Shown piece by piece: positions 5,893-40,760 of a stretch of DNA of 53,359 nucleotides. A model generated the notes under the pieces. The model did not search any database. It was not told the DNA's origin and saw nothing but the letters and a program-made list of their open reading frames with translations. The first letter of the stretch is position 1. Every line of letters starts with the position of its first letter. The DNA comes from Octopus sinensis (lineage: Eukaryota), in assembly GCF_006345805.1 (NCBI RefSeq), contig NW_021833897.1, positions 1 to 53,359 of the forward strand, read 5' to 3'. A program made the position numbers and the translations under genes.

Positions 5893-6418
5893 GTGCCCTT
5901 TTATATTCATATACAGGCTGAGTGAAACAATGTTTTTAATATGTTATATATGTATCTGCGTGTTGAGTTAGTTTTAAAAAAAATACAACATTTTTTTCAT
6001 GCAGGAGCAGGGATAGTAAGAGTTGAAGCTGGCTGCAACAGTTATAGTGTACCCTTTGCTTATCCAGGTGATCTCGCAGTTTTAGTAATTTCTGTTTGTT
6101 GTATAGGTTGATCTCTCTGGGTGTGGTGTATCTACAACCTGTTACAAAAACGTACAGCGCCGTTTTGTGTACATTGTATTTTATTGTAGCTTGGTGCAGA
6201 GTAATTGCGGGCATAGGTGGGACTGACATAGCCTTTGGTGGATCTAATTTATTGTTTGTATACTATACCGTTATTGTTGTTACTTTCTGTTGGCCAAATA
6301 TGGTACATGTAATTGTTCTAAAGTATCTTTGTGCATCGTTTTGCTTTCTTTATTAAGTCTTCTATGTATTGCTGCCTATGTTGCAAGGAGGTTGAATGCA
6401 ACTTCTATAACATATGTC

Positions 6419-7974: not shown

Positions 7975-8310
7975 ATATGTAGAAAAATACAAACTGGGAC
8001 AAGAACGTAAAACATTTAGAAGACGATACAAAAAACACGGACGGGACATTCGAAGCCTTCAATCTTCAGTCAAGAACCGGATCATCCTAGTAATTTCGGC
8101 TGATTAATCTTGAGATCGCTCCGATCCGGCCAGCCCCAAGGAAAAACTAAGCTACGAGCATTAGATTTCTTGGAAAAAGGATCGAATGTATACGAAACAG
8201 GGACAGAAAAACGGACGATGCCACACGAATATAAAATACAGAAAACAATAATGGTAAAAACAGGAGAAAAACAGCGTGTGTCTTACGACTAATAGACAGT
8301 ACTTGACAAC
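7975..8310 (-). mobile_element. PLE/retrozyme-like repeat, family E
   Basis: Homologous to 40395-40760; abuts microsatellite; carries permuted HHR motif. Confidence 0.6.
8054..8130 (-). ncRNA. Candidate non-circularly permuted hammerhead ribozyme (family E copy 1)
   Basis: Minus strand: GCCGGAUC-gg-AGCGAU-C-UCAAGA-uuaauc-AGCC-GAAA-UUACU-aggau-GAUCCGGU-UCUUGA-CUGAAGA-uugaa-GGCU. Confidence 0.55.
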
Positions 8311-11668: not shown

Positions 11669-11861
11669 TAGCTCCTACACGCATTTTTTTCTCTCCTTGT
11701 TTCTCTCCTTGTTTTTTTCTGTGTATCTTTCTGTCGAAGAGCGTATGCTCGAAACGTAAAAGACTTTTTCTATTTCTATTCCTGAGCGCTATACTAATAC
11801 ATTTGTTTGTTTGTACTCCACCTGCCTTCGTCTTTTGTTTATTTTCGTAAACCTTCCCGTT

Positions 11862-11862
<1 letters not shown>
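11669..11862 (+). mobile_element. PLE/retrozyme-like repeat, family D2, with minimal HHR motif at 11726-11763
   Basis: UCUUU-CUGUCGA-A-GAGC(guau)GCUC-GAAA-CGUA-AAAGA; ends in (TA)n; near-identical to 12732-12942 and 27495-28118. Confidence 0.7.
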
Positions 11863-11913
<51 letters not shown>

Positions 11914-11954
11914 TATATATATATATATATATAATATATATATATATATATGCA

Positions 11955-12732
11955 TATGTGGGTACATGACGTCACCAACTGTGTAAACAATATGAAATAC
12001 GAAAACAAACGAGTTAAATACGCAAACAACGAGAGAGAAAAATGGAAAACAGGACAAGTAAACAGAGAACGACCCTTCATCAGTTGTCGTCTGTCTATCG
12101 ACTCCTCGAACGCCACGCATCCATTTCCTAGTAACTTTATCTCAACCTTATTGATGCGACTCTACTCTATACTGTTTACTTCCCCTATCGCTCTCTAATT
12201 CTCTTTTTCTTTCCTTCACCGTTTTCTATCTGTCTGTCTGTCTCTCTCTCTATCCCCCTCTTTCTCTTTTTCTCTCTCTTGCTCACATGTGGCCATCGTC
12301 CATCTTTCTTTTCCTCACGTGACCATCTTTCTTTCCTGCACGACGTTCTAAGGACTGGAGGTTTTCTTTCTCTCTCTTCTATCTTTTCTCTTTTTAAAGA
12401 AAATATTTCTCCCAGCATTCACTATTTTCGTCTCGTTCTGGTCTAACGACCCTCCATGCTTGTTTTCATTCGGTTTCCTTGTATTTCTCCACTGTCCTGT
12501 TTTTGTTCCCAACACTGACCCTCCATAAATCCAAAATTTGTTTTTGGAATTTATGGGAGGAACTGTTTTTGAAGACTCATATTGTCGATGAATGCTCGAA
12601 ATGAGGAGTAGATAGACAGCCGACAACTGATGAAGGGTCGTTCCCCGTTTACGTGTCCTGTTTTCTATTTTCGTTTGCGTATTTAACTTGTTTGTTTTCG
12701 TACTTCAGTTTGTTTACACAGCCGGTGACGTC
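11955..12732 (+). mobile_element. PLE-like remnant, family G, with inverted terminal duplication
   Basis: 11968-12107 is the reverse complement of 12603-12732; the inverted arm ends in (TA)n. Confidence 0.65.
12563..12643 (+). ncRNA. Candidate non-circularly permuted hammerhead ribozyme (family G)
   Basis: CUCAU-A-UUGUCG (12576-12587), GAAUGCUC-GAAA-UGAG (12590-12605), CGACAA-CUGAUGA-A-GGGUcGUUC (12621-12643): stem III 5 bp, stem I 6 bp, stem II 8 bp with one bulge. Confidence 0.65.
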
Positions 12733-12942
12733 TAGCTCCTACACTCATTTTTTTCTCTCCTTTTTTTCCTTTCTTTTTTTTCTCTCCTTGTTTTTTTCTG
12801 TGTATCTTTCTGTCGAAGAGAGTAGGCTCGAAACGTAAAAGACTTTTTCTATTTCTATTCCTGAGTGCTATACTAATACATTTGTTTGTTTGTACTCCAC
12901 CTGCCTTCGTCTTTTGTTTATTTTCGTAAACTTTCCCGTTGT
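12732..12942 (+). mobile_element. Family D2 repeat with minimal HHR motif at 12805-12842
   Basis: Homology to 11669-11862; ends in (TA)n. Confidence 0.7.
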
Positions 12943-12951
12943 ATATATATA

Positions 12952-13364
12952 GGCGCAGGAGTGGCTGTGTGGTAAGTAGCTTGCTAACCGACCACATGGT
13001 TCCGGATTCAGTCCCACTGCGTGGCATCTTGGGCAAGTGTCTTCTACTATAGCCCCGGGCCGACCAAAGCCTTGTGAGTGAATTTGGTTGACGGAAACTG
13101 AAAGAAGCCCGTCGTATATATGTATATATATATATATATGCGTGTGTGTGTGTGTTTGTGTGTCTGTGTTTGTCCCCCTAGCATTGCTTGACAACCGATG
13201 CTGGTGTGTTTACGTCCCCGTCACTTAGCGGTTTGGCAAAAGAGACCGATAGAATAAGTACTGGGCTTACAAAGAATAAGTCCCGGGGTCGATTTGCTCG
13301 ACTAAAGGCGGTGCTCCAGCATGGCCGCAGTCAAATGACTGAAACAAGTAAAAGAGAGTAAAGA

Positions 13365-13365
<1 letters not shown>
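12952..13365 (+). mobile_element. SINE family A
   Basis: Full-length homology. Confidence 0.9.
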
Positions 13366-13379
<14 letters not shown>

Positions 13380-40394: not shown

Positions 40395-40760
40395 AATATA
40401 TAAGAATGAATGTTTTTATATATAATGAACGTGAATACACGGAAGGGACGAACACGGAACACAGACAAATCATTCGAAGCCTTCAATCTTCAGTCAGACA
40501 CCGAATCATCATAGCAAATTTCGGCTGTTCAATTCTGATATTGCTCCAACTCGGCCAGCCCCAAGAAAAAAACTAAGCTGTAAGCATTAGATTTCTTGGT
40601 AGAAGACAGGAATGTGAACGACAAGACGGGATGTGAATACAAGAGACGAAAACGAAATTGAAAACAGTAATGAAAAAACAAAATATATATAACGGTGGTT
40701 GTCATACGACTTTAGACCAAATGAGACAAAACAACAACAACATAGCAGCTGGCGTAGAAA
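40395..40760 (-). mobile_element. PLE/retrozyme-like repeat, family E copy 2
   Basis: Homologous to 7975-8310; abuts TA-rich microsatellite. Confidence 0.6.
40478..40555 (-). ncRNA. Candidate non-circularly permuted hammerhead ribozyme (family E copy 2)
   Basis: Minus strand: GCCGAGUU-gg-AGCAAU-A-UCAGA-auugaac-AGCC-GAAA-UUuGCU-augau-GAUUCGGU-g-UCUGA-CUGAAGA-uugaa-GGCU. Confidence 0.55.

Follow-up and report, generated by a model that had tools for sequence, protein, structure and literature searches.

The conserved outer helix, P0, of permuted hammerhead-type motifs in an animal genome is likely a brace of the ribozyme fold and not a lock on it. At a probability of about 0.6, P0 belongs to the conserved parts of a hammerhead-type RNA whose core is rearranged and split, and serves as the brace that keeps stems I and II together within a single folded-back molecule. 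Sequence comparison shows a long arm composed of stem III, an internal loop and P0, the tip loop of which holds the cut site, one strand of stem I, one strand of stem II and GAAA. Their pairing partners, the second strands of the two stems, leave the far end of P0 through links of 0 to 1 nt, and CUGANGA is anchored by a closing helix, Pz, which adjoins a hairpin, Ph. A sharp bend at the internal loop would dock the tip of the arm onto its base in cis. This bend would be a kink-turn in family E and in a Naiad-type family; the bulged-G-type loops of families G, K and J and the weakly paired loops of families H and L would have to open into induced hinges, comparable to the pk-turn of RNase P. 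Part of the retrotransposition templates would be cleaved in vivo, judging from the ends of insertions. The fold-back monomer is the best single account and is strongest for family E and the Naiad-type motifs.

The brace reading draws on the connectivity of P0, which equals that of the I-II helix, a helix required by type-SGC hammerheads to cleave. It proposes a role for the extra helix in a hammerhead wiring present in thousands of copies. Type SGC, which has this block order, is known from metatranscriptomes (PMC10085705). Disruption of its I-II helix abolished cleavage, and repair restored it (Eckert et al. 2023, PMC10085705). Those authors remark that in some cases the I-II helix connects straight to stem III, though the ends lie far apart in the known structure (PMC10085705). 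Their remark describes the same geometric problem that the initial annotation of the present DNA had raised.

Permuted motifs and their outer helix

The window, that is, the whole stretch of 53,359 nucleotides analyzed, is an entire contig of a repeat-rich animal genome of 2.7 Gb. It contains one strict descriptor match with the order cut site, GAAA and CUGANGA (12576-12633, plus strand, family G) and two more motifs on the minus strand, with CUGA at 8069 (E1) and 40493 (E2). The features of all three motifs are collected in Table 1. The family G copy of the window is somewhat decayed, with a G.G in stem II' and a G.U in P0.

Table 1. Positions of the permuted hammerhead-type motifs and their parts in the window
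Feature	Position	Strand	Remarks
Closing helix Pz, 5' strand	12517-12522	+	Pairs with 12634-12639 (6/6); present in the MFE fold
Hairpin Ph, flanked by Pz and the stem II strand	12523-12556	+	First 8 pairs Watson-Crick; in MFE and centroid folds; conserved in the family
Stem II' (upstream strand)	12557-12561	+	G replaces the family C at 12560, breaking one pair
P0 5' strand	12563-12570	+	Initially annotated as 12563-12568; extendable to 12570
5x5 loop, 5' side	12571-12575	+	GAA of the bulged-G-type motif and two nucleotides
S block, stem III 5' strand	12576-12580	+	Descriptor match; covariation
S block, predicted cut, then stem I strand	12581/12582; 12582-12587	+	5' ends of copies accumulate here
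G block, stem II 3' strand; GAAA; stem III 3' strand	12593-12597; 12598-12601; 12602-12605	+	
5x5 loop, 3' side	12606-12610	+	G plus AGUA
P0 3' strand and link	12611-12620	+	12611-12612, bulged U12613, 12614-12619; link C12620 (1 nt)
Stem I' strand; CUGAUGA	12621-12626; 12627-12633	+	
Pz 3' strand	12634-12639	+	Occupies the place of the stem II strand after A9, giving the split core
E1 motif	8056-8180	-	II' 8135-8131; P0 8130-8123 with 8083-8076; predicted cut after 8114
E1 kink-turn	8122-8120; 8089-8087; 8086-8084	-	GGA; loop; GAU
E2 motif	40479-40607	-	II' 40560-40556; P0 40555-40548 with 40507-40500; predicted cut after 40539; one stem III A missing in the window copy
E2 kink-turn	40547-40545; 40513-40511; 40510-40508	-	GGA; loop; GAU
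Inverted partial G element	11968-12107	-	Begins ~22 nt 3' of the predicted cut; holds P0 3' strand, stem I', CUGAUGA and Pz 3' strand; S block absent

Behind each motif of the window stands a large repeat family, with 2885, 2357 and 1594 first-look candidates in the host genome. Genome pattern searches returned 13,989, 3,969, 3,857 and 1,051 matches, compared to 22, 284, 262 and 26 with the reversed patterns. The sampled loci yielded 116 distinct motifs, 114 of which were placed in 16 families set by hand. From the 30 loci of one pattern search, 17 were left out: 16 belonging to an ordinary minimal type-I hammerhead family and 1 unrelated. This ordinary family is very abundant, lies after (AAT)n or (AAC)n runs and coexists with the permuted families (L185, L186, L190 and 13 further loci). 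A random sample of 600 kb gave one strict match compared to none in shuffles, a result usable only as a lead to family H.

The motifs of the window show the permuted block order S, G, C of type SGC. They combine CUGANGA, GAAA and UH with all three stems (I, II and III); the stems covary and the core is constant, the constancy of CUGANGA and GAAA being partly built in by searches that demanded both. The nucleotides constant in both alignments are C3, U4, G5, A6, G8, A9, G12, A13, A14, A15.1 and U16.1, most of which were required by the search patterns. A scan with Rfam gave no hammerhead model among the 150 matches listed of 165 at E<=1, as expected because the block order is permuted, and a phage BLAST search gave five weak matches of 54 to 63 nt.

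The extra helix that the initial annotation had described in all three motifs of the window, abutting stem I' at 0 to 1 nt, is present in each of them. In the family G motif, CUGUUU (12563-12568) and AGACAG (12614-12619) form five Watson-Crick pairs and one G.U pair, with the single nucleotide C12620 between the helix and the stem I' strand; most family G copies have a C at 12567, which gives P0 six Watson-Crick pairs. The helix can be extended by two pairs beyond a 1-nt bulge (12569-12570 with 12611-12612) at nearly equal energy (-7.8 versus -7.6 kcal/mol). Because of this extension the loop is counted as 5x5 and not as 7x8. The helices of E1 and E2 comprise 8 bp each, and the distance to stem I' is 0 nt in the former and 1 nt in the latter. 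Links from P0 to the partner strands of both stem I and stem II measure 0 to 1 nt in the motifs of the window and 0 to 3 nt in the other families.

P0 is conserved as a pairing beyond the window. The mean stability of the cognate P0 duplex exceeds that with a shuffled 3' strand in all 16 families sampled from the genome, and 66 of the 114 single copies reach p<=0.05. The alignment of families E and F (12 sequences) shows changes on both sides at five of the eight P0 pairs, with 90.5% of the cells paired. In the alignment of families G, K, J, H and L (19 sequences), 115 of the 133 P0 cells are paired, and positions 3 to 5 show the exchanges G-C/A-U, U-A/G-C and U-A/C-G. The latter group averages 6.05 of 7 P0 pairs, compared to 4.46 for swaps between groups and 5.40 for swaps within groups; the register was picked row by row, with equal freedom given to the swaps. 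Kinship among the sequences inflates all of these pairing and covariation counts. A weaker test with single medoid copies places the cognate partner at the top of its row in only 5 of 12 families, partly because the strand is common to related families.

The stem II strand that precedes GAAA finds its partner upstream of the cut site. A stretch of five nucleotides immediately 5' of P0 complements this strand and covaries with it (GAGCA/UGCUC, GAAGG/CCUUC, GGCUG/CAGCC), giving five Watson-Crick pairs in 9 of 12 medoids. With the upstream strand, 92.3% of the cells are paired and three of the five pairs have changed on both sides, compared to 76.8% and one of five with the strand that follows CUGANGA. 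With the stem II 3' strand, the downstream strand retains about four possible pairs, G.U for the most part, but it pairs instead with the sequence preceding the upstream hairpin, which forms Pz (6/6 in the window). Since the downstream strand forms Pz and the upstream strand forms stem II, the core has a break between A9 and G10.1, and CUGANGA does not lead directly into a stem II strand as the intact C block of type SGC does. The stem II strand lies just 5' of P0, and P0 therefore ties together the far ends of stems I and II, like the helix that joins these ends in type SGC. The extra helix had been seen correctly in the initial annotation, which had missed the upstream stem II strand, the kink-turn of family E and the pair of helices splitting the core. 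For the core of family E, an insertion of 4 nt at position 7 was considered; it is needless once Pz is recognized.

The internal loop and modeled closure of the arm in cis

The loop between stem III and P0 differs among the families. In family E, 46 of 51 copies contain a standard kink-turn in which the 3-nt loop varies and the G.A/A.G pairs are fixed; both E motifs of the window contain it, whereas the G motif does not. The 3b.3n pair is U.G in 43 of these 46 copies. A G at position 3n is the rule for kink-turn folding in Mg2+, and a duplex bent by a kink-turn has an included angle of 50 degrees (PMC5061560). The published 3' ends of Naiad_Obim and Naiad_Ovul show, by eye, the matching wiring and a box C/D-like kink-turn (PMC8557442 supplement). 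A family of the host genome that matches these ends has a kink-turn at the matching place and dominates the listing of one pattern search. In three other Naiad 3' ends, the wiring is equal by eye, with an 8-bp stem III that can be extended by 5 bp, and a bulge of 6 to 8 nt, slidable along a short direct repeat, replaces the kink-turn as a third kind of hinge (PMC8557442 supplement).

The remaining families lack the kink-turn. The loops of family H are weakly paired and asymmetric (5x6 or 4x6), with 2 to 3 possible pairs kept across subfamilies (by eye), and the loop of family L, also weakly paired, consists of a small bulge and a 2x1 loop. The loop of families G, K and J is 5x5, and 25 of 37 copies (13 of 17 in G) show an AGUA/GAA signature resembling that of the bulged-G motif, also called sarcin-ricin or loop E. 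This motif, marked by a sheared G.A pair, a U.A trans pair with a bulged G and an A.A trans pair, is not known as a U-turn. The base pairs of the bulged-G motif have been described, and its stacking is extensive (PMC6633198).

A kink-turn in family G formed through a slipped P0 register was rejected: it is available to 11 of 17 G copies and to 0 of 20 copies of K and J, costs 2 to 4 kcal/mol and gives 0/12 closures in the model described below. Its 3b.3n pair would be C.G, which does not fold in ions (PMC5061560). A hinge does not have to be a kink-turn, however. In RNase P, a pk-turn without the kink-turn structure takes the place of the kink-turn, and its bend is driven by tertiary contacts (PMC3672288). 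The alternative of pk-turn and kink-turn hinges in RNase P parallels the two loop types found here in one architectural place.

Closure of the arm in cis was assessed with a rigid-helix bead model in which tethers span 6.5 to 7 A per step, helices have A-form values and stems II and III are set coaxial, following PMC10085705. The positive control is imperfect. The linkers are given no volume, so closure in this model means only that a fold is not excluded. With P0 intact and the loop open, the family G arm closes in 3/16, 7/12 (5x5 loop) and 8/12 starts, the last with a 9-layer P0 at 41 to 76 degrees. An open loop likewise allows closure in H (3/16 and 4/12) and L (6/12). The 7x8 loop of the initial annotation, opened with P0 intact, gives 9/16 closures. 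The claim made there, that the CUGANGA strand cannot reach the loop of its own hairpin while the helix is formed, is not supported in view of these open-loop closures and the kink-turn present in family E. The balance of arm lengths fails as a proof of the monomer, as P0 lengths from 5 to 25 all close with an open loop.

The helix nevertheless poses a real geometric problem, as had been recognized, in that stem III, the loop and P0 stacked as one rod fail to close in cis (0/24). A stacked loop with one small hinge never closes (0/16, 0/12, 0/24). The arm of family E, used as the positive control, closes only with a frayed end G.U pair (2/24, 1/24) or with the G.A pairs opened (11/24), and the frayed arm does so at 14 to 20 degrees, tighter than the 50 degrees of the kink-turn; six other E runs with a 3-nt bulge gave zero closures, and an 8-layer arm closes in 2/14 at 47 to 49 degrees. 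According to the model, closure in cis requires a sharp bend, which is compatible with it though not proven by it.

Ends of the copies and readings of P0

Indirect evidence on cleavage comes from the ends of the inserted copies. Copies were chosen by an anchor near the 3' end, and their 5' ends were mapped; the exact anchor could be placed usably in 84 of 90 family H loci, with 6 dropped, and in 46 of 46 family G loci. In H, 25 of the 60 copies at risk begin 0 to +20 nt from the predicted cut, which corresponds to a start rate of 0.024 per nt compared to 0.0027 downstream and 0.0010 upstream, and no copy begins between -27 and -1. In G, 11 of the 40 copies at risk begin at -2 to +13 (0.013 compared to 0.0012 and 0.0019). 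The pile-up of both families in the interval from -2 to +20 amounts to 7 to 24 times the flanking rates; the piled-up ends include some inversion junctions, one internal deletion and some that share a dinucleotide with the TA target. This pattern fits templates that would end at the predicted cut, and the monomer and the dimer are equally compatible with it. Because their 5' ends pile up at the predicted cut, the two families without a kink-turn, H and G, probably cleave in vivo. The contigs of four sequencing runs, an uninformative source, contain no joint and no 5'-end pile-up at the predicted cut.

For the families without a kink-turn (G, K, J, H and L), a head-to-tail dimer is a less likely but realistic alternative. 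The arm would remain a straight rod whose tip docks on a second molecule or on the next tandem copy, and P0 would stay formed and brace stems I and II across the molecules. Conservation at the hinge of a bulged-G-type motif, described as extensively stacked (PMC6633198), suits such a rod and argues against the monomer in G, K and J, where the stacked signature occurs in 25/37 copies and stacked arms with one hinge fail to close in cis; two small hinges, however, suffice for closure in cis (8/24), and the matching architecture carries a fold-back motif in the E and Naiad-type families. The pairs retained in the H loops would likewise favor the rod, and a two-fold symmetric form would, on geometric grounds, be self-consistent at any arm length. 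Also in favor of the dimer, cleavage seems to affect only a fraction of the templates (25/60 in H, 11/40 in G), and minimal hammerheads of Penelope-like elements also need a second copy (PMC4209133). Tandem copies, on the other hand, are not in excess in the families concerned: a neighbor on the same strand within 1.5 kb is present at 3/23 and 1/13 loci, compared to 5/26 loci of family E. A 12-nt palindrome of family G, considered as a dimer signal and rejected, is absent from the sister families.

A tentative extension of the dimer, itself rather unlikely, is that one swappable loop sets the state of the ribozyme: families with a kink-turn would be monomers, whereas those with a bulged-G or paired loop would act only as head-to-tail dimers, cut when copies meet. 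If true, this would be a second, independently evolved dependence of cleavage on a partner copy in Penelope-type elements, and RNA engineering would gain a useful part in a ribozyme that a single loop makes a monomer or a dimer. The families with and without the kink-turn represent a natural experiment on how the I-II helix and stem III are joined in non-circularly permuted hammerheads.

That the motif serves another purpose, such as protein binding at the loop or a block of reverse transcriptase, with little or no cleavage and with the pile-up as a product of stalling, is very unlikely. Kink-turn and bulged-G are both known recognition motifs (PMC5061560, PMC6633198), and the break between A9 and G10.1 departs from a rule assumed for all known hammerheads (PMC10085705), but the core nucleotides are constant in both alignments, most of them having been demanded by the searches. 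In favor of stalling are the inversion junctions and the dinucleotides shared with the TA target that, as mentioned above, mark several of the piled-up ends; the pile-up nevertheless stops sharply at the predicted cut, with no H start from -27 to -1, and misses the 3' edges of Pz, stem I' and P0, at which stalls would be expected.

A melting switch, in which an inhibitory P0 must melt before the C block docks, is the weakest of the readings and highly improbable: P0 and stem III do cross both stem I and stem II', with nested folds choosing between them and favoring stem I or II' in most sequences folded, the P0 of the window copy is weak as a duplex (-4.2 kcal/mol) and the downstream strand could yield a stem II of the ordinary SGC kind with about four pairs, but compensatory change keeps P0 in every family tested, and partner strands at 0 to 1 nt suit a brace better. 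By nearest-neighbor energies, P0 contributes 5 to 9 kcal/mol, which is the cost of melting, the internal loop being already counted as unpaired. The linker that melting would free has no conserved alternative partner: its pairing with the 3' flank as a I-II helix, considered and rejected, gives -6.0 versus -6.0 for shuffles in G and is clearly better in 1 of 16 families. With the equivalent helix required in SGC ribozymes as well (PMC10085705), the melting proposed in the initial annotation is disfavored.

Related ribozymes and neighboring elements

The motif is a new version of the non-circularly permuted hammerhead. It resembles type SGC (HRIMA-1 and its variants) in the order of cut site, GAAA and CUGANGA, in the short link between stems I and II and in the helix connecting the far ends of these stems, including the puzzle of the linkage of this helix to stem III (PMC10085705). 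Unlike in type SGC, the 5' strand of stem II lies upstream of the cut site, the break between A9 and G10.1 is closed by Pz and Ph, both strands of P0 enter stem III through a kink-turn or a loop, and the host is an animal genome. In PMC10085705, none of these ribozymes was found in the genome of a known organism, with the exception of one GCS candidate. The words "kink" and "k-turn" do not occur in the text of the supplement to that paper, figures aside. A description of the present wiring was not found in the literature searched, the coverage of which extends to few subscription journals.

Minimal type-I hammerheads of Penelope-like elements and retrozymes are likewise found at the 3' end of Penelope-type repeats, copies of which occur in tandem and as inverted partial units (Cervera and de la Pena 2014, PMC4209133), and a possible requirement for a second copy is common to them and the present family. 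The minimal hammerheads dimerize through a short palindromic stem III (PMC4209133), whereas a dimer of the present motif would arise through the exchange of stems I and II between tip and base. In place of the 1- to 2-bp stem III with a palindromic loop that marks minimal dimers, stem III here comprises 5 to 6 covarying base pairs.

Naiad elements share with the present families the (TA)n targets, 5' truncation and inverted partial copies (Craig et al. 2021, PMC8557442), in addition to the wiring and kink-turn of the two published 3' ends described above, whose matching family is abundant in the host genome. The description of Naiad in PMC8557442 reports no canonical hammerhead, with only "core" or "half-core" notes. 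The present motifs bear on whether Naiad-type retroelements, reported in this way, regulate cleavage by dimerization. No frame with N-terminal GIY-YIG and reverse transcriptase domains that would tie G, H or E to Naiad was found within 0.6 to 5 kb of flank of the sampled copies; one GIY-YIG match, weak and short of the curated cut-off (E = 0.001), was rejected as a linked frame because it belongs to a neighboring element. At one E2 locus, a 372-aa open frame (L075:101-1216, plus strand) with no Pfam match ends 382 nt upstream of the E2 motif on the same strand. E2 also occurs in tandem arrays of the host genome with a period of ~700 bp and 99% identity (C14:21283663-21286698 and C6:77465878-77471373, among others), which resemble non-LTR retrozymes.

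The surroundings of the family G motif in the window are nested. A direct repeat of an element end (11669-11872 and 12733-12951) flanks the G element and its inverted partial copy, and this nesting, at 11669-12951, is the typical arrangement of Penelope-like elements inserted into TA repeats. A minimal type-I hammerhead-like motif of a separate repeat family occurs on the plus strand of the window at 12805-12842 and at ~11716-11755, as well as on the minus strand of the locus L123 (~6290-6320); all three copies carry U instead of A at core position 6, and a decayed frame that weakly matches GIY-YIG lies upstream of the motif of L123. A SINE-like repeat family of ~420 bp, present at 12950-13367 and in at least 10 other places, makes up much of the window.
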